Source: a virus (lineage: Duplodnaviria > Heunggongvirae > Uroviricota > Caudoviricetes). Taken from it: a stretch of 64,000 nucleotides of DNA. The notes under the pieces were generated by a model, which had not been told where the DNA came from, made no database searches, and saw only the letters and a list, made by a program, of their open reading frames with translations. The translations under genes were made by a program, and so were the position numbers. Within the stretch, counting starts at the first letter, position 1, and every line of letters begins with the position of its first letter. The stretch is taken from the IMG/VR virus record IMGVR_UViG_2737471844_000002, positions 10,565-74,564 of that record. One strand, given 5' to 3'. Shown here one piece after another: positions 9,404 to 63,259 of the stretch.

Positions 9404-11044
9404 GTGGCAAAACGTAAACTTTCCATTAAAGAGTTTCAGAGAAGCCTGCAGGAGTACATCGCCAACCTCCGCCAGACCATCGAGGCTGAATGTCTGGGGT
9501 TCGATGTTAACCCGCAGGCCACACAGGCCCGCCGGGCGGCAGTCTGCGACCCGGTGACGGGCTACGATTATTTTGTCGAAAACTATTTTCCGCACTATGT
9601 CCGCAACCCGGCAAAAAGTGAGCTGCATAAATACCTGTTCAGCCGTCTGCCACAGGTTGTGGCAAGCCCGGACCCGGAGAACGACGCCATCGCCGCGCCC
9701 CGTGGTGAAGCAAAATCCACGCTGGTGACGCAGCTGTTTACCCTGTGGAACATTATCCGGGCCATTAAGCATTACCCGGTCATCATTATGGACAGTATCG
9801 ACCAGGCTTATCCGATGCTGGAAGCCATTAAGGCTGAACTGGAATTTAACCCCCGTTTAAAAAACGATTTCCCGGAAGTGTGCGGACAGGGCCGTGTCTG
9901 GCGTATGGGGACCATCGTCACGGCCAACAATATCAAGGTAACCGTTGCCGGTAGTGGTAAAAAACTGCGTGGTCTGCGCCACGGCCCGTACCGTCCTGAC
10001 CTGGTCATCCTCGACGACATCGAGAACGACGAGATGGTGCGTAACCCGGAGCAGCGCGACAAGCTGCATGACTGGCTCACCAGAACCGTGATGCCGCTGG
10101 GCGAGGCTGGCGGTAAAACCGATATTATTTATATCGGAACCATCCTGCATTACGACTCCGTGCTGTCGCGCACACTCAATAACCCGATGTGGAAAACGGC
10201 CCGCTTTAAGGCGGTCATTCAGTGGCCTGCCAACATGAAGCTGTGGGACGAGTGGGAAGAACTCATCCGCAACAAACAGCCAGAAGCGGCGGAGGCACTT
10301 TATCAGCAGAACGAAGCCGACATGCTCGCCGGGTCGGTGGTGTCATGGGCGGCGCGCCCACTGCTGGCGCTGATGAAAATCCGTGTCCGTGACGGTCACG
10401 ACACCTTTGATTCTGAATACCAGAACGACCCGGTCAGCGGTGAAGATGCGCTGTTTGCGGGCTGCATTAAGTTCTGGGTTAACCGTCTTGATGAATGGGT
10501 GTTTTATGGTGCTGTTGACCCCAGTCTCGGGAAGAAGAATAAAAACCGCGACCCGTCGGCCATTCTCGTGGGGGGCTTTAACCGTTTTACCGGCATTCTG
10601 GATGTGGTTGAAGCCGATATCCGCCGACGTCTGCCAAACAAACTTATCGAAGACGTGATTAAGTATCAGCGGGAATACCACTGTCTGTGCTGGTCGTTTG
10701 AGTCCGTCCAGTTTCAGGAGTTTCTGCGTACCGTGCTGGTTGAGCGTTCGGCGGCGCTGGGCGTGCCGGTTCCGGCGCTGCCGGTCATCCCGCTGGAGGA
10801 TAAGGCGCTGCGCATTGAGTCCCTTCAGCCGCATATGGCCAACGGCCTGATTCGTATCAGCCACACACATCAGACGCTGATTGACCAGCTGCGCCACTAC
10901 CCCAAAGCCGACCACGATGATGGCCCGGACTGTCTGCACATGCTGTGGACGCTGGCGGTATCGCGCAGCGCAAAATTTCAGATTCACACCCCACGCAGCA
11001 CCGGGCGTGACCGTGGCGGGCGTTTTGGTTCAGGAGGATGGTAA
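9404..11044 (+). CDS. terminase large subunit (Mu gp28-like)
   Basis: Large ORF; GTG 9404 chosen because it follows the MTase stop (the track ATG at 9347 overlaps the MTase); Mu-type terminase sequence character. Confidence 0.8.
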   Translation: MAKRKLSIKEFQRSLQEYIANLRQTIEAECLGFDVNPQATQARRAAVCDPVTGYDYFVENYFPHYVRNPAKSELHKYLFSRLPQVVASPDPENDAIAAPRGEAKSTLVTQLFTLWNIIRAIKHYPVIIMDSIDQAYPMLEAIKAELEFNPRLKNDFPEVCGQGRVWRMGTIVTANNIKVTVAGSGKKLRGLRHGPYRPDLVILDDIENDEMVRNPEQRDKLHDWLTRTVMPLGEAGGKTDIIYIGTILHYDSVLSRTLNNPMWKTARFKAVIQWPANMKLWDEWEELIRNKQPEAAEALYQQNEADMLAGSVVSWAARPLLALMKIRVRDGHDTFDSEYQNDPVSGEDALFAGCIKFWVNRLDEWVFYGAVDPSLGKKNKNRDPSAILVGGFNRFTGILDVVEADIRRRLPNKLIEDVIKYQREYHCLCWSFESVQFQEFLRTVLVERSAALGVPVPALPVIPLEDKALRIESLQPHMANGLIRISHTHQTLIDQLRHYPKADHDDGPDCLHMLWTLAVSRSAKFQIHTPRSTGRDRGGRFGSGGW

Positions 11045-28501: not shown

Positions 28502-29430
28502 TGCAGAATTTAATTCCTCCGGTGAATACGCCGGATCAATTGTTTCACGATGGTGACCCCACTCAGGGCATTGAGGGCACTATTGTTTATGCTGAACACA
28601 TGAATAATCAGCAGGGAGCCATTCGTGACCTGCAACAGGAAATTATTAATGTGCTCCGTGCGGCTGATATATCACCGGACCCGAAGAAACAAAATCAACT
28701 GCTTGATGCTATATCGCAATATGTCGGGAAAAAAGTTCCTGACGCATCATTAACGAAGAAGGGCATCGTTCAGCTCAGTAGCGCAACAGACAGTGATTCA
28801 GAAACGGAAGCAGCCACACCAAAGGCAGTAAAATCACTGGCGGAAAAAATAACAGAATTGCAGGGAGTGGCTTTACCGGTAGGTACCCCAATACCGTGGC
28901 CGTCTGATTCAGTGCCACCCGGCTATGCCTTAATGCAGGGGCAGAGCTTTGATAAAGGCTCTTACCCTAAACTTGCAGCTGCCTACCCATCCGGGATTAT
29001 CCCGGATATGCGGGGCTGGACAATTAAGGGTAAGCCTGCCAGTGGTCGTGCTGTATTGTCTCAGGAGCAGGACGGCATTAAATCACACGCCCACAGTGCC
29101 AGTGCATCCAGTACGGATTTGGGGACGAAAACCACATCGTCGTTTGACTACGGAACTAAATCAACAAATAACACAGGTGGTCATAATCACGGTGTTGGTG
29201 AAAATGTTTCTGTCAGTGCCGGCAGTGGCAAAACAGTAAATATGAGTACCGGCACCGTAAATCTTTACACCAAATCTGCTGGCGCTCATGCGCACACTGT
29301 CGGCATTGGTGCTCATGTGCACACTGTTGCTATTGGTTCACACGGACACACCGTCACTGTTAACGCTACTGGTAACGCAGAAAACACCGTCAAAAACATC
29401 GCATTTAACTATATTGTGAGGCTTGCATAA
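28501..29430 (+). CDS. tail fibre protein
   Basis: 309-aa ORF; C-terminal half is near-identical to the C-terminus of the P2-like H protein at 51456-53588, including His-x-His repeats and the [18 protein letters not shown] end. Confidence 0.7.
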
Positions 29431-30005
29431 TGACTTTTAAAATGAGCGATAAAGCACGGACCATGCGTGTATTTAATTTTCTTGAAGATACAAAAGAATT
29501 TATCGGCAGTGGTGACGCTTATATACCGCCTCATACCGGATTACCCGCAAACTGTACGGATATTGTACCGCCGGAAATTCCCGAAGGTTTTACGGCAATG
29601 TTTGATACTGCTGACAATTCATGGCGTCTGGTAGAAGACCATCGGGGGGAAACAGTTTATTCAACGGAAACCGGAAATGCAGTCCCGATATCTGAACTGG
29701 GGGAACTTCCTGAAAATGTCACATTTATTGCACCAGACGGAGAATACCAGCGCTGGGATGGCAGTCAGTGGGTGACGGATGAAGAGGCGAAGCGTGATGC
29801 GCTGATTAATCAGGCGGCAGAAAAGAAAACCAGCCTGCTGAAACAGACTGGAGAACAAATCGCAATCTTACAGGATGCTGTTGATTTTGGTGAAGCAACA
29901 CCAGAGGAACAGGAGCAACTGACAGCCCTCAGAAAATTACGAATAAAGTTAAATCGTATTCAACCGGAAAATGCACCAGATATCGACTGGTCAGACTTTG
30001 AATAA
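29430..30005 (+). CDS. tail fibre assembly protein
   Basis: 191-aa ORF; homologous to the P2-like G product at 53588-54187 (shared [14 protein letters not shown] motif). Confidence 0.7.
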   Translation: MTFKMSDKARTMRVFNFLEDTKEFIGSGDAYIPPHTGLPANCTDIVPPEIPEGFTAMFDTADNSWRLVEDHRGETVYSTETGNAVPISELGELPENVTFIAPDGEYQRWDGSQWVTDEEAKRDALINQAAEKKTSLLKQTGEQIAILQDAVDFGEATPEEQEQLTALRKLRIKLNRIQPENAPDIDWSDFE

Positions 30006-36457: not shown

Positions 36458-37540
36458 ATGGTAAACGTGAGGGAGGATGAACTTTTCAAACTCATCGAGC
36501 AAGGCATCAAAGGCAACGCAAATGCATTTACACTCCTATGCAGAAAGATGATTAACAACATCCGTAAAAATGATGAGGCTTTAGCTTCTAAGCTGGCTTC
36601 GTTAGTTGCTGAGGGAACAGTATTACGTGGGGCATCTAGTAAGGCTCCTATGCCTGTGGATGGAGACTCCAGACGAAACCTTTTGCAGGAAACATCTGTC
36701 AACGCAATTGTTGAAGAACCTGTATGGAATACGGATATCTCAAAGAAGCTGGAGTCAATTGTTAACGAAAGAGAGAATGCGGTTTCTTTGTTCAAAGCTG
36801 GTCTTGAACCTGTGAAGACGGTTTTACTTTCTGGCCCGCCAGGCGTAGGCAAAACAATGTCCGCACATTGGCTTGCTGCAAAGTTAAATTTACCTCTTTT
36901 AACATTGGATCTCTCATCTGTAATGAGTTCTCTTTTGGGAAAAACAGGTAATAATATTAAATCCGTTATGGATTATGCCAAAGAGAAACCATGTGTCCTT
37001 TTGCTTGATGAATTTGATGCTGTTGCAAAAAGACGTGATGATGACAGGGACGTTGGAGAATTAAAACGTTTAGTTACTGTACTCCTACAGACCATAGATG
37101 AGTGGCCAGCGACCTCGCTTCTTGTTGCTGCGACTAATCACCCTGATATCTTAGATCCGGCTGTTTGGCGTCGATTTGAGCACATCCTTAAATTTAATAT
37201 GCCATCAGTAGAACTGATAGATAGATATTTAGTCAATCATAATATTGAACCTGAACTATCTAAAAAACTTGCACCATTATTAGATGGCATGTCCTTTGCC
37301 ATCATTAACCGTATTTTGAATTTCTCCAAAAAGAATGAGGTACTTAGAAATATTCCATTTGAAAGCTCATTAATAGAAGCCGTAATTACGGAGAGGGTTT
37401 CATTGGATGAGTTTAGCGATAATGATCTCAATATAATTAAATATCATTTTGACGGTTTTTCAAATAGGAAGATAGCTGAATTAGTTGGTGTTTCACATCC
37501 AACAATCGCGAATAAATTACAAAAGTGGGGGATTAAATGA
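36458..37540 (+). CDS. AAA+ ATPase with C-terminal HTH domain
   Basis: 360-aa ORF; Walker A GPPGVGKT, Walker B LLLDEFD, sensor/Arg-finger region ATNHPDILDPAVWRRFE; C-terminal GFSNRKIAELVGVSHPTIANKLQKWG helix-turn-helix; AT-rich. Confidence 0.8.
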   Translation: MVNVREDELFKLIEQGIKGNANAFTLLCRKMINNIRKNDEALASKLASLVAEGTVLRGASSKAPMPVDGDSRRNLLQETSVNAIVEEPVWNTDISKKLESIVNERENAVSLFKAGLEPVKTVLLSGPPGVGKTMSAHWLAAKLNLPLLTLDLSSVMSSLLGKTGNNIKSVMDYAKEKPCVLLLDEFDAVAKRRDDDRDVGELKRLVTVLLQTIDEWPATSLLVAATNHPDILDPAVWRRFEHILKFNMPSVELIDRYLVNHNIEPELSKKLAPLLDGMSFAIINRILNFSKKNEVLRNIPFESSLIEAVITERVSLDEFSDNDLNIIKYHFDGFSNRKIAELVGVSHPTIANKLQKWGIK

Positions 37541-39741
37541 TGGAAAGGAACTTACTTTTAGGTAACGGTCATGTTCTGACAAAAAAGGAACCTTTGCCTA
37601 AAGGAAGGGATGGTAAGCGCTATCCCTATACTCTTGAAGAAGTAAGGGAGCATTTAAACCCAGAGATTGATACTTTACTCTCACGCTTTCGCAGTTTGGA
37701 TGATGCGGCTAAGCCAAGGGGGGAGAGTGTATTCAATTTAACTTTACACCCAGCGTTTTTGGGTAAAAGCTACTTTCCGGAAGGATTGCTTAGAGCGACA
37801 GGTTTACGGGATGTCGGTAGCCGTCAGGTAATCATTCGCCCACGGAAAGCGGCACGTCAGTGCGATCAGAATAAGGACTTAGTAACGGCGCAACTGTTTG
37901 TTAGCGGTGATGATGATGCCGTTATAAGATTTAAGGAAATTTTAAATTCCCCTACAGCTCCGAAGGGCGTACAAAAGGATTTGATCGAAATTGAAAGTGT
38001 TAGCTTTTTTGAAGGAAAAGAGAGAGCACGCAATTTTGAGCATGCGAAAAGTGATTTGATAAAATTTGAAGTGGTTCTTCATGCTGGGGTTGAAGACGAT
38101 GATATCGTTAAAGCCTATATTAGCTATGCGGCACAATATGATGTCTCTGTTGATTACAAAAGTAGAATCCAAGTTGGTGGGCTGACTTTCATCGTTGCAC
38201 ACGCGCGACCTGAAGATATGAAAAAAACACTCGATTTTTCATTAATCCGCGTTGTGCGGCCGATGCCGTCTCTCAGGTGTACTCAGCCGAACATTGTCAG
38301 AAAGTTATCTAATATAGTTACACCGGAGCTCCCTAATTCTAAAGCTGTTCTTGAATCCGAACGTATTGCCATTTTTGATGGTGGCTTGGGGACAGCTGAC
38401 TTGAGTAATTGGGTTACGGAATACGTGTATCCAGACACCAAAGAAACAAGCGGATTATTATTGCAGCACGGTAATGAAGTGACATCCACTTTCTTATTCG
38501 GACGTGTCGAGGAAAATGCACCTTCTTTTAAAAGACCGTTTATGAATGTAGATCATTATAGAGTTCTTTCACCGACATCAGGTGACAATGGCAATTGGGA
38601 TTTATTTGATGTCCTTAAGAAAATACAGTCCGTTCTTGATAGTGGTGACTATAAGTTCGCTAATCTAAGTATTGGTCCTCATCTTCCAATTGGTGATGAT
38701 GAGGTTCATGTATGGACTGCTGTTTTAGACCAAATCTGTGCTAAGCATGGGATATTACTTACTGTTGCTGTTGGGAATGATGGCAATGAGGACGGTGATG
38801 CAGCGAGAATACAACCTCCTTCCGATATGGTAAACGCGCTAGCGATTGGTGCTGCTGATCGTAGCGGTGAAAAATGGGGGCGGGCACCATATAGCTGTAT
38901 TGGGCCAGGCAGAAGCCCCGGATTCGTTAAACCTGATGGTGTTATTTTTGGTGGAAGCGACGACGAGCCTTTTTACACTTACAACCCTCTGCTTGGTTCT
39001 ATAGTTGGAGTTCAAGGAACCAGTTATGCCTCTCCATTAGCATTGAGAACGGCCGCTGGAGTTGCGGCTCTATCAGGAACTCCATTGAACACCATTGCAT
39101 TGAAAGCGTTGCTTGTTCATCATGCTGAAACATCAAGAAAATATTCGCGTGAACATATCGGTTGGGGACGGTTTAGTGAGGATCCTAACGTTTTAATCGA
39201 TTGTCCAAATGATACTGCTACAGTAATTTACTATGGTTCATTAGCAAAAAATAAATATTTAAGGGCACCGATCCCATTCCCTGATGTTCCCTTTGACGAA
39301 GCATTTGAGCTTACCGCTACTTTATGCATTCAAACCCCAGTAGATCCTGAACATTCAGTAAACTATACAAGGGCCGGTATGCAGGTAACTTTCCGCCCAA
39401 GATTCGGCCTTGACGATACCGATACAGATGATTTCTTTGGTCAAAAAAGCCAGTATAAGACTGAAAGGGAGTGTAGGAGTGAAGGTCATAAATGGGAAAC
39501 TTGTTTGCACAGAAGCAAAAAGTTCAGTGCTGATACATTATTAAGCGATCCAGTTTTTGATATACGGTATCATGCCCGAGATTCTTCGCGCCATGTTAAG
39601 GGAGTTTCAGCCCCTGATATGCAATATGCGATGGTAATAAGCGTAAGGGTAAAAGACTTTGATTTATATAATGTTATTCGCCAGCGATATACAATTCTGA
39701 ATCCTATTCAACTGCGCACACAAATTTCTCTCGACACGTAA
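37537..39741 (+). CDS. S8 subtilisin-like serine protease with N- and C-terminal extensions
   Basis: 734-aa ORF with ATGA overlap to the ATPase gene; catalytic triad motifs IAIFDGGLG (Asp codon 38377-38379), LQHGNEV (His codon 38467-38469), GTSYASP (Ser codon 39022-39024) in canonical D-H-S order and spacing. Confidence 0.8.
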   Translation: MMERNLLLGNGHVLTKKEPLPKGRDGKRYPYTLEEVREHLNPEIDTLLSRFRSLDDAAKPRGESVFNLTLHPAFLGKSYFPEGLLRATGLRDVGSRQVIIRPRKAARQCDQNKDLVTAQLFVSGDDDAVIRFKEILNSPTAPKGVQKDLIEIESVSFFEGKERARNFEHAKSDLIKFEVVLHAGVEDDDIVKAYISYAAQYDVSVDYKSRIQVGGLTFIVAHARPEDMKKTLDFSLIRVVRPMPSLRCTQPNIVRKLSNIVTPELPNSKAVLESERIAIFDGGLGTADLSNWVTEYVYPDTKETSGLLLQHGNEVTSTFLFGRVEENAPSFKRPFMNVDHYRVLSPTSGDNGNWDLFDVLKKIQSVLDSGDYKFANLSIGPHLPIGDDEVHVWTAVLDQICAKHGILLTVAVGNDGNEDGDAARIQPPSDMVNALAIGAADRSGEKWGRAPYSCIGPGRSPGFVKPDGVIFGGSDDEPFYTYNPLLGSIVGVQGTSYASPLALRTAAGVAALSGTPLNTIALKALLVHHAETSRKYSREHIGWGRFSEDPNVLIDCPNDTATVIYYGSLAKNKYLRAPIPFPDVPFDEAFELTATLCIQTPVDPEHSVNYTRAGMQVTFRPRFGLDDTDTDDFFGQKSQYKTERECRSEGHKWETCLHRSKKFSADTLLSDPVFDIRYHARDSSRHVKGVSAPDMQYAMVISVRVKDFDLYNVIRQRYTILNPIQLRTQISLDT

Positions 39742-51455: not shown

Positions 51456-53588
51456 ATGAGTACCACAACACGTAAATTTAAAACCGTTATCACCGATACG
51501 GGTGCCAAAAAATTAGCTCAGGCAGCCGCGCCAGATGGTAAGCCTGTCCGCCTGACTCATATGGCCGTGGGCGACGGTGGCGGTACATTGCCCACACCAG
51601 ACAGTAAGCAGACCCGTCTGGTGCATGAGGTGTGGCGACATACTGTTAATCGCGTCATCCTGGACGCAACACATCAGAACCGCATTATTGCAGAGCTGGT
51701 TATTCCTCCAGAAACGGGCGGATTCTGGATCCGGGAAATTGGTGTGTTTGATGAGCACGGCGATTTAATCGCGGTGGGCAATACTGCCGAAAGTTACAAG
51801 CCAGCCGTTGCCGAAGGGTCCGGTCGTGCACAAACATTTCGCACCATTCTGACCGTATCCAGCACTGCCACTGTGGCGCTTACCGTGGATAACACCATGG
51901 TGATGGCCACAGTGGATTACGTGGATAACAAACTGAAAGAGCATGAACAGTCACGACGTCACCCGGATGCCTCGCTGACCGCAAAAGGCTTTGTTCAACT
52001 CAGTAGCGCCACTAACAGCGATTCTGAAACGCTGGCTGCAACGCCGAAAGCGGTTAAGGTCGCGTATGATCTTGCTAACGGAAAATATACAGCGCAGGAT
52101 GCCACAACAGCGCGAAAAGGCCTTGTCCAGCTTAGTAGTGCAACCAACAGTACATCTGAAACGCTGGCGGCAACATCAAATGCAGTAAAAGCTGCCTATG
52201 ACAATGCTGAAAAACGTCTGCAGAAAGCTAAGAATGGTGAGGATATCTCTGACAAAGACACCTTTACGAAAAATATCGGTGCCTGCCGTGCATATAGTGC
52301 AGAGCTGAATATTGGTGGAGATAGTGAAGCATGGACAACTGCGCAGTTGATTTTTTGGCTAGAGAGTCAGGGGGCATTTAACCATCCTTACTGGATGTGC
52401 AAAGGCTCATGGGCTTATGCAAGTAATAAGGTCATTACAGATACAGGTTGCGGAAATATTTGTCTTGCAGGTGCTGTTGTGGAAGTTATTGGCACCCGCG
52501 GCGCAATGACCATACGCATTACCACACCGAGTACATCCAGCGGTGAAGGCATCCCTAATGCTCAATTTACTTATATTAATCATGGTGATGCTTATGCTCC
52601 TGGCTGGCGAAGGGACTATAACTCCAGGAATAAGCCAACAGCATCAGAGATCGGGGCGTTACCGTCAGATGGGACAGCAGTATCGTCAGTTAATCTGGCT
52701 TCAAAAGGTCGGCTGACCGCCCTGACAGATAATATGCAGGGGGCCACAGGTCTGGAGTTATACGAGGCGTATAACAACGGATATCCAACAGCGTATGGAA
52801 ATATCATTCACCTGAAAGGGATGACAGCCGTTGGCGAAGGCGAATTACTCATCGGCTGGAGTGGTATAAGCGGTGCTCATGCTCCGGCATTTATTCGTTC
52901 ACGACGGGATACGACCGACGCAAACTGGTCGCCGTGGGCGCAGCTTTACACCTCGGCTCATCCTCCTGAAGAGTTTTATCCAGTCGGTGCACCGATTCCG
53001 TGGCCATCAGATACCGTTCCGTCTGGTTATGCCCTGATGCAGGGGCAGACTTTTGACAAATCTGCATACCCGAAACTTGCAGTCGCTTATCCGTCAGGCG
53101 TGATCCCTGATATGCGTGGCTGGACTATCAAGGGCAAACCTGCCAGTGGTCGTGCCGTATTGTCTCAGGAACAGGACGGCATTAAATCGCACACCCACAG
53201 CGCCAGCGCATCCAGTACTGATTTGGGGACGAAAACCACATCGTCGTTTGATTACGGTACTAAAACGACCAGTTCATTTGATTACGGCACAAAAACCACA
53301 AATAGCGCAGGAGCTCATTCACACAATATACCTGTTGGTCACACTGGCGCGGGGAATGGTGTATCAGCCGGTTATAACGCTGCGTTAGGTACTGGTACCA
53401 CGTCGAGCGCAGGAGGGCATGCTCACAATGTATATATCGGTGCCCATAACCACACTATCGGCATTGGTGCTCATGCCCATTCTGTCATTATTGGTCCCCA
53501 CGGACACACCATCACCGTTAATGCTACGGGGAACGCAGAAAACACCGTAAAAAACATCGCATTTAACTATATTGTGAGGCTTGCATAA
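51456..53588 (+). CDS. H: tail fibre protein gpH
   Basis: 710-aa ORF; P2 gpH-like N-terminus ([21 protein letters not shown]...); internal tandem repeats; C-terminal tip shared with the Mu-like fibre at 28501-29430. Confidence 0.85.
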
Positions 53589-54187
53589 TGACATTCAGAA
53601 TGAGTGAACAATCACGGACCATAAAAATTTATAATCTGCTGGTCGGAACCAATGAATTTATTGGTGAAGGTGATGCATACATTCCACCTCATACAGGTCT
53701 GCCTGCAAATAGTACTGATATTGCTCCGCCAGATATTCCAGCTGGCTTCGTGGCTGTTTTCAACAGTGATGGGGCGTCCTGGCATCTCGTTGAAGATCAT
53801 CGTGGTAAAACGGTTTATGACGTGGCTTCCGGCGACGCGTTATTTATTTCTGAACTCGGTCCGTTACCGGAAAATGTCACCTGGTTGTCGCCGGAAGGGG
53901 AATATCAGAAGTGGAACGGCATAGCCTGGGTGAAGGATACGGAAGCAGAAAAAGTGTTCCGGATACGGGAGGCGGAAGAAACAAAAAACAGCCTCATGCA
54001 GGTAGCCAGTGAGCATATTTCGCCACTTCAAGATGCCGTAGATTTGAATATTGCAACAGAGGAAGAAACATCGTTACTGGTGGCATGGAAGAAGTATCGA
54101 GTGCTGCTGAACCGTGTTGATACATCAAGAGCACCGGATATTGAGTGGCCAGCTTCCCCAGTGGAATCAAGGAGTAAACAAGCATAA
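53588..54187 (+). CDS. G: tail fibre assembly protein gpG
   Basis: 199-aa ORF; ATGA coupling to H. Confidence 0.8.
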
Positions 54188-54251
54188 AGGCTTTCATTTC
54201 AAACCATTGTAGTCCAGTTTTTTGTATAGTACCCTGCTCATTACGGATGAC

Positions 54252-55460
54252 ATGTGTGATTTGGAATTTCAGGGTACCATTATGAATGTTATTTCATCGT
54301 TAAAACAGCTTAACAGACAGCGAAATATTAAAACAAAAAAGATAAAGACGAAGGCCAGACTGGCATTTCTAAAAATGCGATACAGAAGGAAAACATCATT
54401 ACAGCCGGATAGTTATAAAACAGTGTGCATTTTCATGCACATGCAAGCCATTGGTGACGGCATCGTTACCTCAGGGTTTATTAAACAACTTCAAAAATCC
54501 GGTATGGTGGTATATGTGATAGCACCTTCAAGAGTATCATTCCTCTTTACTGACATTGTTGGCGTGGATGCCTTTATATCTTACGAGAAAAATAAATTTA
54601 ACGAACTAAAAGCAAAGATAAAAAAACTGAATGTAGATCTTGTTGTTGACTTCTCAAATTTTGATAACACAGCGATAACCAGATTGCAAACACTACATTT
54701 ACTTAGACCTAAACACTCTATCTGTTTTAATCATCCTGCCGTAACTATTTTTGATACAAATATAATCGATAATCGTTCCATTCACACATCTGAAAGAATG
54801 AAAAAAGTTTTATCTTTACTAAAGATAAAAAATAATAATTATGCTGCAGCGCTTAATTTTGACAACAAAATATATGAACCAGCAAATATTGTTGCAAATG
54901 AATTCAGGAAAAAAAACAAAAAATTAGTTATATTTAACCCTTATGGCTCTCAGAATAGCAGAACCTTATCTGATGAACAGATAAAAAAAGTACTAGCTTA
55001 CCTTAATAACCTTAAGGGATATCACACAATAGTTTTTAATATGGGAAAACAGATTAATCACAATGGATTGGATAATGTGTCTCTATCTCCATTTTCTGAT
55101 GCCGGATGTTCATTTGCATTGGTTCGCCATGCTGATTTTGTTATAACTGTAGATACTGCCATTGTACATTTAGCCAGTGCATTAAACATTAGACAATACT
55201 GTATATATAATAACAGAATGCATGAAGGAAAATTCGAAAATAATATTGTGTGGGGGCCAAACAGCAAATTAGCGACTCAACTCACCACATCCGAACATCT
55301 AAGGTCTGAAGGGGGCGACGATATGCATAAATTCGACATAATGATCTTAATTAATGCTATCAAACAAGATTTGACAAACGATATACCGAATTACCACTCG
55401 GATTTAGGTTGTAAAAATAGTTCCAGAAACCCAGAATTAGAAAGTAGCAATTCTTTATAA
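54252..55460 (+). CDS. GT9-like glycosyltransferase (heptosyltransferase fold), moron
   Basis: Track ORF begins at TTG 54222; ATG 54252 or 54282 more likely; strongly AT-rich; C-terminal VDTAIVHLASALN and central FNPYGSQNSRTL motifs resemble WaaC/WaaF-type LPS heptosyltransferases. Confidence 0.55.
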   Translation: MCDLEFQGTIMNVISSLKQLNRQRNIKTKKIKTKARLAFLKMRYRRKTSLQPDSYKTVCIFMHMQAIGDGIVTSGFIKQLQKSGMVVYVIAPSRVSFLFTDIVGVDAFISYEKNKFNELKAKIKKLNVDLVVDFSNFDNTAITRLQTLHLLRPKHSICFNHPAVTIFDTNIIDNRSIHTSERMKKVLSLLKIKNNNYAAALNFDNKIYEPANIVANEFRKKNKKLVIFNPYGSQNSRTLSDEQIKKVLAYLNNLKGYHTIVFNMGKQINHNGLDNVSLSPFSDAGCSFALVRHADFVITVDTAIVHLASALNIRQYCIYNNRMHEGKFENNIVWGPNSKLATQLTTSEHLRSEGGDDMHKFDIMILINAIKQDLTNDIPNYHSDLGCKNSSRNPELESSNSL

Positions 55461-55556
55461 AGTAGAAACCTCAACAGTTTTATCAGGACCTACGATATAT
55501 TATATAACAACAAGCCGCCCATTACCCAATATGAAGGTATTGGCGGCAATGTAAAA

Positions 55557-56051
55557 TCAGAACAGTCCTTTAACTGAACTGGCCGCGCTGTTAAGAGATG
55601 ATGTCACCTTATCTTTGAAGCCGGACAGCATATCGCTGAACGATGAGGATTGCAGGCGCTCCCGCAAATCCTCATCACAGCGTTCAAGGGTCAGTGAAAA
55701 TTCTATCTTTTTCGCCTTACCGTAGCGATCAAACTCGGAACGGGTCGTATTCGTTCCGGTCAGGACATACATGCCGTAAATCAGCCCGACACCATCAATC
55801 AAAGGCCAGGGTCGTCCTGTATACGCCTGCGTGGTCAGCAGCGACAGCGACACTTCGCCACCTGTAATTTCAGGATAAAGCACACCAGAAAGCACGATGC
55901 GATCATCACCTGCACCGATATACTGCCAGCTTGCTGAACGGTTAACGCGTTCATTTTTCACATGCCGCCAGCTTTTGTTTTGCTGTAACTGCTGATGCGG
56001 CAGCGTGCGCAGCTCAAAAACAAACATGCCGTAGATCATCATCATGGCCAT
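55557..56051 (-). CDS. U: tail protein gpU
   Basis: 164-aa ORF on the minus strand; P2 gpU-like size. Confidence 0.75.
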   Translation of the reverse strand: MAMMMIYGMFVFELRTLPHQQLQQNKSWRHVKNERVNRSASWQYIGAGDDRIVLSGVLYPEITGGEVSLSLLTTQAYTGRPWPLIDGVGLIYGMYVLTGTNTTRSEFDRYGKAKKIEFSLTLERCDEDLRERLQSSSFSDMLSGFKDKVTSSLNSAASSVKGLF

Positions 56052-56057
56052 GACTCC

Positions 56058-58901
56058 TCAATCTTTATCGTAAAAACTTCCACGCCCGGCACGGGCGCGC
56101 CGTTCCATTTCTGCCCTGACCATTTCACCGACCAGTTTCGCCAGTTCGCGGGGATTCTGCGTAACAACGTTATGCAGATGAACATGAATTTCACCGCCAA
56201 ATCCGGAGGCAACAGGCTCCCGGTTACGGGAAGTTGCAGGAACTGATGCCACTGGCGATCGTATGGCCTCTGCCACCGGGCGGGAGCTGGCCGCAACAAC
56301 AGGGACCAGCGCCGGAGGCAGCGGAGCCGGAACCACAGGTGTGATATTAATTGCGGGGGCAGGCTTACTGACCTGCGCAATCTTCCGCTCCTGCCACTCC
56401 CCACGAACAGCAAGTGCTCGGGGCAGGTTCTTAAAGACAATATCGCCGGGGCCAATGCGTTTTTTCGTCTCATCAACCAGCTTACCTGTGTTATCAGCAA
56501 TTTTGCTGAGTCTGCGTAGCGTCCCGGTATTGCTGTCTGTGAGCGGTTTGTTGTCTTTGGGTTTATCACCTCCGGTGCCATTGCCATTTTCCACAGGCTT
56601 CGGCGGATTGATTTTCGCCAGGTCCCCCTGAAGCAAGGCAACCTTGTCCTGAAGAATGGCCGCACGCTGTGCGTCTTCGATTTTCTTGCGCGCCCTTTCC
56701 GCTTCATCCGGAAGGACGCCAAGTTTTTCAAGTATCCACGCCAGCGTATCCAGTAGCATTTTTGCAGGTGTCAGAACAAGTTGTAACGCACCGCCAAGAA
56801 CGTTACCGAATATCTCGCCAGCACTGGTACATTTATCCAGCGTTTCCTTGCTGGACTCCATCGGTGACAGCAGCGATTTAAACCAGTTAAACACCTGGCT
56901 GATCCCGCTTCCGATTGCGTCAAAAACAGGACCAAACCGTTCAAAGGTTTCGCGCAACGGGGTCAGCCTTTCCATAATCCCGCTGAACACCCCGGCAAAA
57001 AATGCCCTGATGGGATCCCAGTATTTCCAGATAAGAACGGCAGCTCCGGCAAGCGCAGCCACGATAAGACCAACCGGACTGAACAACGCCCCGATAGCGC
57101 CTCCCAGTAAAGAAACGGAACCCGTCACCATTCCCCATAGTGCTGGCAGGACCCTGACAGCATTCATTGATCCGGTCAGGAGAGAAAAACCAAGACGCAG
57201 TTTTGCCAGCGGGCCAGCAAGCACACCAATAGCCAGCGACAACGAGCCAACCGTTGCAGTCATTGCCAGCAGCGCACCGCCTGCTATCAGTAGCTGGCGC
57301 GTCAGTGCCGGATGGGCCTGCGCCAGCGCCGTCACCCTTGATACCACCCGCGTGAGCCACTGCGTGACAGAACGCAGCGGACCGTCAATCAGATCTGCAA
57401 TGCGGATGCGCAACCCTTCCCATGCACTGCCGAGTGATTTCAGATCGCCGTCAAGGTTGTTGGCCATAACCTTTGCTGTGCGTTCAGCCTCACCGCGCGC
57501 GCCTTCAAGTTCTTTTCTCAGTTTGGGTAAGGAACCGTCACCCGCTGCATCAACGAGCGCCATAAACGATGTGAAAGCCTCTTCTCCGGCAATGTCCTTA
57601 AAGAACGATACCCGGTCAACTTCCCCGTATTTGCGGGTGGCTTTATAAAGGTCGGCCAGCACATCTTCCATCGGGCGCATTTTGCCGTTCGCGTCAGAGA
57701 CTGCCACACCGAGCTCTTTCAGCGCCTCTGCTGCTGCCTTTGGCGGTGATGCCAGACGAGCCAGGCTGGCACGCATTGCCGTCCCGGCATCACTCCCTCT
57801 GATACCCATATTCGCCAGCACGCCCGCCATCGCTGCGGCCTGCTCCAGCGATATTCCCAGCTTACCCGCCGCCGGACCTGCATATTTCATGGTTTCGCCC
57901 AGTGCGCGAAGGTCAGTGTTGGTACGGGTAAACGCTGCGGTGAGCGTGTCGCCAACCCGGTCCATCTGGTCAGCAGAAAGGCCGAACTGCGTCAGGATAT
58001 TTGAGCCAATATCCGCCGTCTCGCCGAGATCCATGCCGCCAGCCGTTGCCATGCTCAGCACGCCCGGAAGCGCAGCCTGAATGGCCTGCGGTGTGAAGCC
58101 CGCCATTGCAAGAAATGCCTGCCCACTGGCGGCATCGCCTGCGGTGAACTGCGTTTCAGAGCCAAGTTTTAACGTCTGCTCACGCAGCGCCTTAAACTGC
58201 GGGCTGTTTTTGTCGATTCGCGTCAGAGCCTGAACGCGGGACATCTCTTTCCCGAACCCAATCGCGGGCTGCAAAAAACGCCCGGCAGCATAGCCGCCCG
58301 CCGCTGCCGCACCTGTTGCCAGTGCACCACCTGTTTTCAGTTTTCCCGCGGTTTCCTGCGCGCGCGAATACCGCTCACGCGCCCGCGTTACACGCGCAAG
58401 CGCCTGCCGTTCGCGTTCAAGCTGGTTGTTGTACTGTTCGGTGCGTCTGATGGCCTGCTGGATGGTGTTATCGCTGCCTGTCAGGGAAATGCCGTGGCGT
58501 TTCAGCTCTCCGCCAAGCTCCCGCATTTTCTGAATTTCCCGTGTGCGCGATTCATTCAGGCGTTCAAGCCGGGTGCTTAACTGCTGCATCAGCTTTTGTT
58601 GTTTTTCGCTGAGCACTGTACCCGTGCGTTGTAACTGATTAAGGGCGTTAAGCTGGCGTCGTGCTTTCACGATACCCGCATCCGCTTTACTGACAGCGTC
58701 GCGGGCGCGCTCAAATGATCGCGCCTGACGCTCGAGATTTTTGATCGCCCCCTGCGTTCGCTGGATGGAGTCACCAAACTGCCCCATCAGGCGGCGTGCG
58801 TTTTCGGCAGGTCGGGTCAGCCTGTCAACGGCGCTGAAAGCGACCCGGATATCAAGAGTCTTCATTGTCTGCATTCCCGCTGCGAAGTGCCGCCCGCTCA
58901 C
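56058..58901 (-). CDS. T: tail tape measure protein gpT
   Basis: 947-aa ORF on the minus strand; Ala-rich, coiled-coil N-terminus. Confidence 0.8.
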   Translation of the reverse strand: MSGRHFAAGMQTMKTLDIRVAFSAVDRLTRPAENARRLMGQFGDSIQRTQGAIKNLERQARSFERARDAVSKADAGIVKARRQLNALNQLQRTGTVLSEKQQKLMQQLSTRLERLNESRTREIQKMRELGGELKRHGISLTGSDNTIQQAIRRTEQYNNQLERERQALARVTRARERYSRAQETAGKLKTGGALATGAAAAGGYAAGRFLQPAIGFGKEMSRVQALTRIDKNSPQFKALREQTLKLGSETQFTAGDAASGQAFLAMAGFTPQAIQAALPGVLSMATAGGMDLGETADIGSNILTQFGLSADQMDRVGDTLTAAFTRTNTDLRALGETMKYAGPAAGKLGISLEQAAAMAGVLANMGIRGSDAGTAMRASLARLASPPKAAAEALKELGVAVSDANGKMRPMEDVLADLYKATRKYGEVDRVSFFKDIAGEEAFTSFMALVDAAGDGSLPKLRKELEGARGEAERTAKVMANNLDGDLKSLGSAWEGLRIRIADLIDGPLRSVTQWLTRVVSRVTALAQAHPALTRQLLIAGGALLAMTATVGSLSLAIGVLAGPLAKLRLGFSLLTGSMNAVRVLPALWGMVTGSVSLLGGAIGALFSPVGLIVAALAGAAVLIWKYWDPIRAFFAGVFSGIMERLTPLRETFERFGPVFDAIGSGISQVFNWFKSLLSPMESSKETLDKCTSAGEIFGNVLGGALQLVLTPAKMLLDTLAWILEKLGVLPDEAERARKKIEDAQRAAILQDKVALLQGDLAKINPPKPVENGNGTGGDKPKDNKPLTDSNTGTLRRLSKIADNTGKLVDETKKRIGPGDIVFKNLPRALAVRGEWQERKIAQVSKPAPAINITPVVPAPLPPALVPVVAASSRPVAEAIRSPVASVPATSRNREPVASGFGGEIHVHLHNVVTQNPRELAKLVGEMVRAEMERRARAGRGSFYDKD

Positions 58902-59088
58902 GCCAGCTAACCACTTCGCCGGGCGTCATCATGAAGATTTCGGCGGGCGACCAGTTAAAAATAACGGCAATATCTGCCACAAAGTCTTCTATGTGCTCAA
59001 AGCACACAACCGTGATCAGGCTTCCGTCGCCTGTTCGTTCTTCCCGCCAGAGTCCGCACCGCTCAAAAAATTTACGGCAACCACACAT
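58852..59088 (-). CDS. E-prime frame of tail chaperone (expressed as E+E-prime by -1 frameshift)
   Basis: ORF in the -1 frame relative to E, overlapping the E 3-prime end and the T start; a slippery heptamer lies in the overlap. Confidence 0.55.
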   Translation of the reverse strand: MCGCRKFFERCGLWREERTGDGSLITVVCFEHIEDFVADIAVIFNWSPAEIFMMTPGEVVSWRERAALRSGNADNEDS

Positions 59089-59381
59089 AACTGAATAAAG
59101 TCACTGGATGCCATTTTTTTGATCGTCACTTCATCCAGTCGCGGTGATGTCACGCGTGACAGCAGAGTAAACATGGATTCCGCTTTCAGATTCAGCACAT
59201 CAGACAGCGACAAATCTCGCAGAGATCCAGCCTGCTCAATAGCCCCGGTAATCTCCACATACGTGATTTTTTCGCCGCCTCGCTCAATTGGTTGGGTAAG
59301 TTTTACACCACGTTCACTGGTTTCTTTCACAGTGTCAGCAACTACCGTGTTTTCGGTATCGATGTTTTTCGTCTCTTTCAT
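59016..59381 (-). CDS. E: tail assembly chaperone gpE
   Basis: 121-aa ORF between FII and T on the minus strand. Confidence 0.6.
   Translation of the reverse strand: MKETKNIDTENTVVADTVKETSERGVKLTQPIERGGEKITYVEITGAIEQAGSLRDLSLSDVLNLKAESMFTLLSRVTSPRLDEVTIKKMASSDFIQLCVVAVNFLSGADSGGKNEQATEA
59034..59040 (-). other. programmed -1 frameshift slippery heptamer T_TTT_TTG
   Basis: On the coding (minus) strand the E frame reads aaT TTT TTG agc (N F L S); shifting -1 gives TTT TTT GAG (F F E), which matches the KFFE start of the E-prime frame. Confidence 0.55.
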
Positions 59382-59435
59382 CAGGAAATTCCTTTCAGTC
59401 AGAGGCGACGCACTGCGCCGCCTGCATATTACTTA

Positions 59436-59948
59436 TCAGCCAAGCCCGAGCGCGGAACGGATGCGATCGGGCACAATGTCCTTGCCGTCCTTCCGGTAAA
59501 TGAAGTTCAGCAGGTCAATCTCCCACAACGGGCGATCGTTAACACTCAGCTTGTAGTAGGTGTTTTTAATGGCGTAAGTGTGTGATGTGGCTTCGCCCTG
59601 TTTGGCTTCCCCCATATCAATTTCCGTCACACGTCCGCGCATTTCGACTTCATACAGGTCGCTTTCTGCATCGGTGTAGTATTCACCCGCAAAACGCAGC
59701 AGCGTGCCGTCAATCGTGCCGCCATACTTAAGGAACAGCTCACGAACTGCGCCCCCCATGACAAAGCTCGCATCAAGCGCGGAGTCGTCCAGACCGAGAT
59801 CAATACTTACCGCACCCATCATGCCACCACCCCGGTAGCTGTCGGTTTTGCGCGTCAGCTTAGGCAGAGTGACGGACGTCACCTTACCCACTTCGTTTTC
59901 ACCATCCACAAACAGCGTAAAAAAGCGAAGATGTTTTGGTACAGCCAT
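59436..59948 (-). CDS. FII: tail tube protein gpFII
   Basis: 170-aa ORF; P2 FII-like. Confidence 0.8.
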   Translation of the reverse strand: MAVPKHLRFFTLFVDGENEVGKVTSVTLPKLTRKTDSYRGGGMMGAVSIDLGLDDSALDASFVMGGAVRELFLKYGGTIDGTLLRFAGEYYTDAESDLYEVEMRGRVTEIDMGEAKQGEATSHTYAIKNTYYKLSVNDRPLWEIDLLNFIYRKDGKDIVPDRIRSALGLG

Positions 59949-61132
59949 CAGGCACCTCCCAGCACCGCAAATGCGGGACCAAAGAATTCATCAGTAAACG
60001 ACTGGTAAAGCTCCATGTCTTCCAGCGGGGGAACAGGCGTATATTTGTAGCGAATACGCACGCGCCCCTGACGTAAATTCGTGGTGCCGTTATCCACCAC
60101 GTCATACCAGCACGACGCCCCAATCAGTTTCCCGGCAGTAACCAGTGAATCCAGTTTTGCCCTGATGGCACTGATAACATCTTTCACGTTCGCAGGCGTC
60201 AGTGGACTGTCGATGGTTTCAAACTGCGCTTCCGCAATTGAATCAGCCAGCACCTGTGCGGTTCGGGTATACACCTCAAAGATGTAGGCGTTCGTTTCCG
60301 GTGTGCGGTTGCCCCAGAAGCGGAACCCGTTGCGACGAATAATGGTCGTGATTTCTTTGTTGTTGAGGCTGTTGGCATCACTGTCTTCGGCCTGCAACGA
60401 CCAGAACACATGCCTGGACATCCCCAGCACATTTTTAACCGGAACGTTGGACAGCGATTTGTGCCAGCCCTGCTCATGGTCAATGTACGCACGAAGGCCG
60501 CACGCATAGGCAGGCGCGGGGAACGTTTCGTTTTTGCCACTTTTCGGGTTGTAGGCGATGAAGTCCGGCCATAAGAGCATCACCTCACGTTCGTTGAATT
60601 TCTGGCGGTAGGTAATCGCCTCAGCCATCGTGTTACAGCCGTGACATGAGGCATACACAAACGCGCGCAGTTTACCCGCAATCACGCACAGGGATTTTGT
60701 TACCGCCTCCGTGTCCAGCTCCGGCGCGGCCAGAATACGCGGACGGTATCCGATGCTTTCATCCTGCTCTGCAACAAGCAGCGCATACATCCCCGTATAG
60801 CTGCCGTCAGATTCAGAACCACCGATAACCAGTTGATCCTGCGTTTTTCCGTCTTCTTCTTTGTGTTCAGCCACGCGAACGACGATCACCTTTGTGCTCA
60901 CCTGGTCTGCGATGGCCTTAAGCGCACGATAAAGCGTCCCCGTTGTTCCGCATTTTCCCAGCACGTCATTGACGCGGGTCAGCAGTGTGGGCTTGTTCAG
61001 CGGGAACAGCTCCGCATCCGCATCATCCGCCGTTGCCACGATACCGATAACACTGGAATCAACATCATTAATCGCTGTTACCAGGTCGGTACTTTCCGTA
61101 ACACGGGCACCATGAAAACGAGTTTCACTCAT
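59948..61132 (-). CDS. FI: tail sheath protein gpFI
   Basis: 394-aa ORF; strong resemblance to P2 FI (KLRAF.Y.S..GC.T..E...YRQ.F..RE.M..WPDF, GWHK.LSNV, LIRR.GFRFWGNRT). Confidence 0.85.
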   Translation of the reverse strand: MSETRFHGARVTESTDLVTAINDVDSSVIGIVATADDADAELFPLNKPTLLTRVNDVLGKCGTTGTLYRALKAIADQVSTKVIVVRVAEHKEEDGKTQDQLVIGGSESDGSYTGMYALLVAEQDESIGYRPRILAAPELDTEAVTKSLCVIAGKLRAFVYASCHGCNTMAEAITYRQKFNEREVMLLWPDFIAYNPKSGKNETFPAPAYACGLRAYIDHEQGWHKSLSNVPVKNVLGMSRHVFWSLQAEDSDANSLNNKEITTIIRRNGFRFWGNRTPETNAYIFEVYTRTAQVLADSIAEAQFETIDSPLTPANVKDVISAIRAKLDSLVTAGKLIGASCWYDVVDNGTTNLRQGRVRIRYKYTPVPPLEDMELYQSFTDEFFGPAFAVLGGA

Positions 61133-62593: not shown

Positions 62594-63259
62594 ATGAATA
62601 TGCAAATTTTTATCGCACCAGCAGCCACAGTTGCTGCAGTCTGCCTTGCTGCATATTTTGCTTTACGAAATGAACGTAAAAAGAAAGCACTTGAGATTAG
62701 AACAACTCAACTAGATCGAATATCAGAGCTAGTAAACCGAGCATCTACCAATTTGATGCAATATACAGGTACTCTTGCCTCTATACTGGAAGCGCACGCC
62801 AAAGATAATTATCTACCGAACAAAAAATTTGACATTAATGTAATTAGCAAATGGAAAGATTGCCTCGATGAGAGTGAGGTCTGGGCGATTGATAGACAGC
62901 AACTAAGAACATGTCAGCACAGTCTGGAGTTTCATCGTGAAAAAGAATGGGCTGAATGGAAAAAAATAATTCCACCATTACTTGATAAAATTGACCAATT
63001 TTTTCTCATATCTAAGCCAGGGCAACCTGTTACGTTTATAAATGGCCAAAACAAAACAGCTGATGAACTACTTGTTTTCTCAAGATATTTGAGAAAACAA
63101 ACAGCAGAAATTGAATCAGTACGTCAGCTGTTACTTTCTCAAATGAGAGAGGAATTCATCGAGTTAACTAGCTTTGAACCTGTCACAATGTTTAGCTTAT
63201 TTAAATCAATAAAGAAAAATGTCATGCAATTTTTCTGTATCAGTGCTCTTAAAAATTGA
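62594..63259 (+). CDS. membrane-anchored protein of unknown function (moron between D and ogr)
   Basis: 221-aa ORF; single N-terminal TM helix (IFIAPAATVAAVCLAAYFAL); strongly AT-rich; own terminator downstream. Confidence 0.5.
   Translation: MNMQIFIAPAATVAAVCLAAYFALRNERKKKALEIRTTQLDRISELVNRASTNLMQYTGTLASILEAHAKDNYLPNKKFDINVISKWKDCLDESEVWAIDRQQLRTCQHSLEFHREKEWAEWKKIIPPLLDKIDQFFLISKPGQPVTFINGQNKTADELLVFSRYLRKQTAEIESVRQLLLSQMREEFIELTSFEPVTMFSLFKSIKKNVMQFFCISALKN

Follow-up and report, generated by a model that had tools for sequence, protein, structure and literature searches.

A WaaU-like family 9 glycosyltransferase gene at the post-fiber cargo site of a P2-like prophage: a candidate lysogenic-conversion gene acting on the lipopolysaccharide core

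Prophage genes that modify lipopolysaccharide (LPS) are a classic means by which serotype changes and resistance against other phages arise, and the studied cases (Gtr, Oac) act on the O antigen. The gtrABC and oac genes of Shigella and Salmonella phages are AT-rich morons, located after fiber genes or beside the integrase, that change the LPS of the lysogen. Gtr itself is encoded by three genes and acts in the periplasm on the O antigen via a bactoprenol-linked sugar, and the gtr clusters of SfV-type phages lie between fiber and integrase. In phage P2, Fun(Z) is a non-essential lysogenic-conversion gene carried as cargo directly downstream of gene G, in the order G, terminator, fun(Z) on the opposite strand, and FI-FII-E-T-U-D. 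Here, we describe a gene for a family 9 glycosyltransferase (GT9) directly downstream of the tail-fiber assembly gene G of a P2-like prophage, within a 64,000-nucleotide stretch of a Caudoviricetes record (IMG/VR IMGVR_UViG_2737471844_000002, positions 10,565 to 74,564; this whole stretch is hereafter called the window). Judged by gene order, the site is equivalent to the Z/fun hotspot of P2, a known mixed-purpose hotspot (10.1101/2024.10.15.618418; PMC13586616).

The locus resembles these systems only in part. Its cassette holds a single GT9 gene in place of a gtrA-gtrB-gtr(type) cluster, and the product is predicted to be a cytoplasmic and most likely core-directed enzyme, in contrast to the periplasmic Gtr. 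The gene shares with fun(Z) its place as cargo directly downstream of G, but it is co-directional with G and abuts gpU, whereas fun(Z) lies on the opposite strand between G and FI; no similarity to Fun(Z) was detected (best BLASTP E 8.0). The only named member of the subfamily to which we assign the protein is WaaU (RfaK) of Escherichia coli K-12, described as the heptosyltransferase IV through which the third glucose of the K-12 outer core receives the fourth heptose, a site at which the O antigen is attached (PMC13293308). K-12 WaaU is encoded in the waa operon whereas the prophage gene sits in a phage cassette, so that by location the latter does not qualify as a WaaU orthologue.

We consider it probable that the gene is a moron of the P2-like prophage, encoding a lysogenic-conversion enzyme that would decorate the lysogen's LPS outer core with a side-branch sugar, probably heptose. 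A role in LPS is suggested because relatives reside in waa outer-core clusters and because prophage-borne relatives lie beside sugar-modifying enzymes. The GT9 name has already been assigned by annotation pipelines. What is new is the placement in a WaaU-like subfamily, the traffic of this subfamily between waa clusters and several prophage families, and the link with R3-core hosts together with the absence from K-12 and R2 hosts; our literature search found no paper on a prophage-borne GT9, heptosyltransferase, or core-modifying enzyme at the Z/fun locus. If the proposed role is correct, lysogenic conversion by a phage GT9 that rewrites the core would also reach a portion of LPS that serves as receptor for many coliphages, P2, Mu, P1, and T-even types among them, and that bears the O-antigen attachment site.

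Family, fold, and closest named enzymes

On sequence and structural-model grounds, the protein is a GT-B glycosyltransferase of family GT9 and is predicted to be active. It exceeded the gathering cut-off of Pfam PF01075 (Glyco_transf_9), scoring 27.4 bits where 22 are required (E 2.6e-6), and the same profile matched 31 of 34 members of the family that we aligned (E<0.01). An AlphaFold2 model built from the family alignment reached a predicted local distance difference test score (pLDDT) of 89.7 and a predicted template modeling score (pTM) of 0.85, with the last ~24 residues disordered and unconserved. Comparison of this model with the PDB using Foldseek returned GT9 structures for nine of the ten best matches (E 4.5e-14 to 1.8e-10), the top GT9 entries being Veillonella 3TOV, E. 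coli WaaC (6DFE, 2H1H, 2GT1, 2H1F), and WaaF (1PSW). The exception was a plant NDH-PSI complex chain (9GRX) at rank 6, and other GT-B families started only at E 7e-7. A preliminary description of this gene had named a hidden Markov model search and structure prediction as checks of a GT9 assignment, and both came out in its favor. A sequence search of the PDB gave marginal matches only, at the donor motif, and the PHROGs match was to a family of unknown function.

The two motifs quoted in the preliminary description are present: residues 218-229 read FNPYGSQNSRTL, and residues 290-302 read VDTAIVHLASALN and line up with the donor-binding motif D261/H266 of E. coli WaaC. Alignment with MAFFT showed no variation at G58-D59, D291, or H296, either among the 34 family members or in WaaU, WaaC, WaaF, and WaaQ. 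D59 is equivalent to the catalytic base D13 of WaaC, and D291 and H296 of the donor motif D291-T292-x-x-x-H296 are equivalent to WaaC D261 and H266. The protein begins with a polybasic helix (residues 3-33); its N-terminal ~45 residues form a long helix with no acidic residue, and the first 40 residues carry a net charge of +14. This basic extension is kept in the family and is aligned in WaaU but is absent from WaaC, WaaF, and WaaQ. The helix may serve as a peripheral membrane anchor.

Among the named LPS enzymes, K-12 WaaU was by far the closest in profile comparisons. The family aligned with it at 99.5% hhalign probability (E 3.6e-22) over 306 columns that include the N-terminal basic helix, compared with probabilities of 90% for WaaQ and 76% for WaaC. 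WaaU and the prophage protein share the G-D, D-T-x-x-x-H, 'NP', and 'W(G/S)PN' blocks, and BLASTP aligned them at 23% identity (E 7e-18). WaaC, WaaF, and WaaQ (2H1H, 6DFE, 1PSW) have the same GT-B fold (Foldseek E 1e-10 to 4e-12; TM-score up to 0.72 when normalized to the target) and the same catalytic Asp and donor-binding Asp and His, with an identity of only 13-18%. Scores against the NCBIfam equivalogs fell far below their cut-offs, both for heptosyltransferase I (TIGR02193; 23.2 bits vs. 185.3) and for RfaQ (NF007742; 20.8 bits vs. 467). The comparisons place the protein in a WaaU-like GT9 subfamily. Its earlier characterization as heptosyltransferase-type thus holds at the level of GT9 but not as closeness to heptosyltransferases I-III. 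With regard to the donor, ADP-heptose would be used if the protein follows its family, as we infer heptose from GT9 membership only.

The GlcNAc transferase WaaK of the R2 and Salmonella cores is likewise an outer-core side-branch enzyme, encoded beside waaL where K-12 has waaU. We considered it as a WaaU homologue and as a possible second model for donor choice. It was dropped after comparison of the R2 locus, in which WaaK showed no homology to WaaU or to the family (hhalign probability 0.3%, BLASTP E 0.7).

Genomic contexts of relatives and core types of hosts

A search of 5.8 billion proteins returned only 35 clusters, among them that of E. coli (98% identity; 536 sequences at the 90% cluster level); the remaining ones are 39-89% identical, with Providencia and Orbus as the named sources. 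An exhaustive profile search gave 118 clusters at the 50% identity level with E<=1e-30, rising to 766 with E<=1e-10, so the family is a small GT9 subfamily. Full-length open reading frames (ORFs) are retained in E. coli relatives of 96%, 89%, and 76% identity. Sequenced phages gave no megablast match and no isolate with a close relative; tblastn against 50,697 phage records recovered only two Campylobacter phages at 23% identity, and BFVD contained only distant GT9 folds.

Many chromosomal relatives are located in LPS biosynthesis loci, at a position among outer-core genes that corresponds to that of waaU in K-12. In a Serratia-like genome, a homologue with 55% identity (P0009) lies in the order waaL-waaQ-waaG-waaP-waaB-GT8-GT8-[homologue]-waaA-coaD, and one gene of this cluster is 98.5% identical to a Serratia marcescens contig. 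Homologues were also found within the waa cluster of Brenneria, among waaS-, waaO-, waaJ-, and waaU-like genes of outer-core clusters in Gilliamella, near rfaD-waaF-waaC in Mangrovibacter, and in an LPS locus of Orbus beside a GT2, a GT9, and two sulfatase-family genes. The Citrobacter homologue adjoins GT4 and GT2 genes.

Other relatives are borne by prophages of different kinds. The Providencia stuartii relative follows a fiber gene and a Caudo_TAP assembly gene in an E217-like prophage, and that of P. alcalifaciens follows a different fiber gene and is itself followed by an LbH acetyltransferase gene, at a prophage end beside smpB. In a Mu-like prophage of P. rettgeri, the order is fiber, TAP, relative, GT2 on the opposite strand, DinI, and integrase, so that the relative lies between fiber and integrase with a GT2 beside it, a position like that of gtr in SfV-type phages. 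On a further phage contig, the relative lies directly after the portal gene. Phage and chromosomal members are interleaved in a neighbor-joining tree. These contexts point to repeated capture of relatives by unrelated prophages, beside other sugar-modifying enzymes. The acetyltransferase of Providencia (L003:11167-11733) is 40% identical to an acetyltransferase that occupies the equivalent site, between G and U, in P2-like prophages of E. coli. Because the same acetyltransferase and GT9 families recur at post-fiber sites of unrelated prophages, one pool of LPS-type modifying genes circulates through these hotspots. As the GT9 family moves between waa clusters on chromosomes and phage backbones of E. 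coli and Providencia, of which there are at least five, it could be a mobile source of variation in the core, one that would escape in-silico core typing if this relied on waa genes alone.

Within E. coli, the gene was present in 49 of 5,426 complete genomes. All 49 copies are chromosomal, annotated as 'glycosyltransferase family 9 protein', and located beside phage tail genes; 42 are more than 99% identical to the window's gene and seven are 95-99% identical. The gene is intact in 48 of them, the remaining copy being split by an IS5-family element, ISKpn26 (E. coli CH468, NZ_CM166354.1, 4426772-4429150).

We typed the LPS core of these hosts with chimeric queries that joined the gene to a core-type marker, counting the places matched per record; the R3 marker waaD was taken from host MS6193, whose waa cluster we read directly as R3. 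Neither K-12 waaU (1,032 genomes overall) nor R2 waaK (501 genomes overall) was found in any of the 49 hosts. The R3 marker was found in 45 of the 49, compared with 1,364 genomes (25%) overall (Fisher p 4e-23, uncorrected and over genomes that are not phylogenetically independent). The four hosts without it (AR_0118, AR_0119, AR_0128, ET791) should have an R1 or R4 core, by elimination. This near-exclusive link with R3, whose hosts include many lineages of Shiga toxin-producing E. coli (STEC), offers a concrete acceptor hypothesis.

Proposed role and competing explanations

In the role that we favor, the polybasic N-terminal helix would hold the enzyme to the inner membrane on its cytoplasmic side, where it would act as an inverting transferase with Asp59 as catalytic base, moving a sugar from a nucleotide sugar to a hydroxyl of the nascent lipid A-core ahead of export. 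The donor would most likely be ADP-L-glycero-D-manno-heptose, which to the best of our knowledge is made by every E. coli, and the product would be a side branch of the outer core. The acceptor must differ from that of WaaU, as a K-12 core is absent from all 49 hosts, and an R3-type core is the likely acceptor given that 45 of the hosts are R3 and none is K-12 or R2. Such a change of the lysogen's core could hide receptors that other phages, or kin of this phage, use on the core; it could also alter how the O antigen is ligated or how the animal host recognizes the cell. A narrower version, core-level seroconversion in which a K-12-like heptose branch placed on R3-core E. coli by the phage heptosyltransferase would hide the core from phages that use it as receptor, is in our view less likely than not.

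Several observations weigh against a core-modifying role in the lysogen. The identity to WaaU is weak (23%), and the activity of K-12 WaaU is itself only 'putative' in RefSeq. The cluster around one relative with 46% identity (P0030) is O-antigen-like and includes wzx, wzy-like, and nucleotide-sugar genes, which suggests that the acceptor need not be the core. The R3 link is not specific to the glycosyltransferase gene: the alternative acetyltransferase cargo is nearly confined to R3 genomes as well (1,369 genomes match the acetyltransferase or waaD, compared with 1,364 that have waaD), and because both cargoes show the same bias, it may reflect the host range of the prophage, its lineage, or the hotspot rather than the enzyme. 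It is also possible that the gene is transcribed with the late tail operon and not in the lysogen, which would suit surface conversion less, since no sigma-70-like promoter was found on the plus strand upstream of the gene and no terminator-like site between G and the gene. A looser scan found a -10-like TATAGT at 54225-54230, preceded by TG and with no recognizable -35, and relatives in three other loci (L003, L005, L094) have TATAAT/CATAAT boxes of this kind at about the same upstream distance; as alignments of AT-rich DNA, these comparisons are weak evidence. The gene is, moreover, not tied to one fiber allele, which speaks against a strictly co-evolved pair of fiber and receptor mask. We had considered such a pairing with one tail-fiber tip allele and rejected it as a strict linkage: the module formed by the H tip and G in the window is a common stf/tfa module present in more than 4,000 genomes, only two of which combine it with the glycosyltransferase gene, and the fibers upstream of the Providencia relatives are of differing types.

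The enzyme may be a genuine GT9 that acts on a lipid-linked glycan other than the LPS core, such as the O-antigen repeat on undecaprenyl pyrophosphate, enterobacterial common antigen, or capsule. The O-antigen-like cluster around P0030, which is not a waa cluster, and the GT4 and GT2 genes beside the Citrobacter relative fit this explanation, as does the fact that classical seroconverting phages modify the O antigen. We nevertheless judge it unlikely, as most chromosomal relatives lie within waa outer-core clusters, WaaU as the closest characterized protein is a core enzyme, and to our knowledge all characterized GT9 LPS enzymes act on the core. Furthermore, the O types of the hosts are diverse (e.g., O104, several STEC strains) while their core type is nearly uniform. 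Slightly less likely still, in our estimate, is a passenger gene that does little or nothing in E. coli, one derived from an AT-rich Enterobacterales donor and tolerated at the hotspot, where it would be silenced (e.g., by H-NS) or lack an acceptor. A G+C content of 33%, the absence of a clear promoter or strong ribosome-binding site in the upstream region that we scanned, the IS5 insertion in one host, and the rarity of the gene (49/5,426 genomes) would be expected of a passenger. They have to be set against 48 intact copies among 49 from many sources and chromosomal sites, invariant catalytic residues, full-length ORFs in E. coli relatives down to 76% identity, and the independent capture of the family by at least four other phage backbones.

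Two further explanations move the target away from LPS altogether. GT9-related autotransporter heptosyltransferases, TibC and Aah, modify adhesins, and a late, co-transcribed enzyme could similarly heptosylate the phage's own tail fiber or another virion protein; if this were true, it would represent a coliphage virion-glycosylation system that moves with tail-fiber genes across phage families. The gene shares its direction with the upstream structural gene in five phage contexts and lies 94-176 bp downstream of it (a fiber or assembly protein in four, the portal in one), and the lack of a detected terminator after G and the Ser/Thr-rich repeats of the fiber could be read in the same way. We consider this improbable, because the best structural matches are LPS heptosyltransferases, with no TibC or Aah among the 50 best PDB matches, and because an Aah/TibC-like viral protein ranked only 20th in BFVD (E 2.7e-5, compared with 8e-9 for an RfaF-like one). 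Chromosomal relatives also occur in LPS clusters with no phage nearby, the cassette is interchangeable with an acetyltransferase on the opposite strand, and the gene is paired with differing fiber alleles. The last explanation, raised in the preliminary description as an unrecognized defense effector, would be an intracellular anti-phage enzyme that glycosylates phage DNA or proteins. Hotspots of P2-like phages, including Z/fun, are reservoirs of defense genes (PMC9122126; PMC13586616; 10.1101/2024.10.15.618418), which is in its favor. Yet no PADLOC model matched (0 families of PADLOC-DB 2.0 at E<=1), the gene stands alone without a partner, its family lives in LPS biosynthesis clusters, and its polybasic, membrane-type N terminus is common with WaaU; we regard a defense function as the least credible of the readings weighed here.

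The cargo site and its surroundings

The right half of the window (~32 kb to 64 kb) is a P2-like prophage of E. coli, with a gene order that we took from a near-identical annotated prophage of E. coli VG35A2. Its left part carries A, parM/parR, an AAA ATPase and S8 peptidase, Q, P, O, N, M, L, and X, followed by the lysis genes, R, S, V, W, J, I, H, G, and the glycosyltransferase gene. To the right of the latter lie U, T, E, FII, and FI on the minus strand, then D, a variable spot, ogr, and hok. The features around the cargo site are:

51456-53588, plus strand: tail-fiber gene H, whose tip forms with gene G a widespread stf/tfa-type module
53588-54187, plus strand: tail-fiber assembly gene of G/Tfa type, the last structural gene of the V-W-J-I-H-G operon
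54153-55538, no strand assigned: replaceable cargo cassette of 1386 bp, delimited by comparison with E. coli 6883 (L011)
54222-54281, plus strand: 5' extension of the mechanical ORF from a TTG, probably an untranslated leader
54282-55460, plus strand: GT9 (WaaU-like) glycosyltransferase gene, 392 amino acids, assigned from Pfam, the family alignment, and the model
55514-55547, minus strand: GC-rich hairpin GCCGCC...GGCGGC, followed by a U-rich run on the minus strand, with no T-run on the plus strand
55557-56051, minus strand: gpU tail gene, 46% identical to P2 gpU, the last gene of the inverted FI-FII-E-T-U operon

The ORF listed at 54222-55460 on the plus strand was confirmed as present and intact, but its start probably lies further downstream than the preliminary description had it. 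Since the 34-member family alignment opens at the Met of the ATG at 54282, and identical RefSeq copies are annotated with the same start, the true gene is most likely 54282-55460 rather than an ORF from the TTG at 54222. The gene has a G+C content of 0.33 (0.30 at third codon positions), with a minimum of 0.29 in sliding windows, compared with 0.54 and 0.52 in the adjoining phage DNA on the left and right, respectively. The AT-richness reported earlier is therefore real, and such a composition points to a foreign, AT-rich origin of the gene.

Replacement of the cassette is apparent from the P2-like prophage of E. coli 6883 (L011), where a 767-bp acetyltransferase cassette takes the place of 54153-55538 between flanks that are 95-97% identical. 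The acetyltransferase is an LbH 'serine acetyltransferase' on the other strand than the window's glycosyltransferase. Within 54153-55538, a single ORF of at least 60 amino acids has a family match, and the only other one is a 69-amino-acid antisense ORF. The tail-fiber assembly gene that had been placed upstream was found there, and the proposed Z/fun position stands in that a replaceable cassette follows G. It differs in that the far neighbor of the cargo is gpU and not FI, because the FI..U block is inverted. This block (55557-61132, minus strand) is inverted relative to P2 (L100:5653-10792), with D remaining on the plus strand, so that the FI-FII-E-T-U operon converges on the cargo site; all related E. 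coli prophages that we examined (L001, L002, L011) have the same arrangement. The hairpin at 55514-55547 is probably the terminator of the FI..U operon.

The acetyltransferase gene of E. coli 6883 (L011:15209-15781, minus strand; LbH 'serine O-acetyltransferase') fills the site between G and U in many E. coli P2-like prophages, and 66 matches to it were found on plasmids. Inside the glycosyltransferase gene, a perfect 7-bp inverted repeat, TGTGCAT-TTTC-ATGCACA, lies at 54424-54441 across the conserved VCIFMH motif and was flagged as terminator-like on the minus strand by our scan. The repeat also matches TGT-N12-ACA, which we take to be the pattern of P2 late-gene activator sites; this Ogr-type pattern, which is not validated on known late promoters, was found only inside the glycosyltransferase gene. 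An Rfam IS009 match (RF02111) at 53931-54129 on the plus strand (187 bits vs. a gathering score of 117) lies wholly within gene G and probably reflects tfa coding homology rather than a separate RNA gene.

Two other variable sites were seen in the P2-like prophage. Between D and ogr, a 221-amino-acid ORF with a hydrophobic N terminus occupies 62594-63259 (plus strand), and no function is assigned to it; of the sister prophages, L002 has a ComF-family gene and a hypothetical gene at this spot and L011 a PIN-domain protein. By colinearity with L002:9458-12741, the region at ~36500-39700 is an old/tin-type hotspot between gene A and the portal gene that holds parM/parR and the AAA-ATPase/S8-peptidase gene pair, and the pair is a candidate defense module. 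The left part of the window (1 to ~31000) belongs to a different, myovirus-type prophage in tandem with the P2-like one, and it includes a tape measure gene, a DNA circularization protein gene, a Mu-type baseplate, and a tail-fiber assembly-like stretch at 29278-29660.

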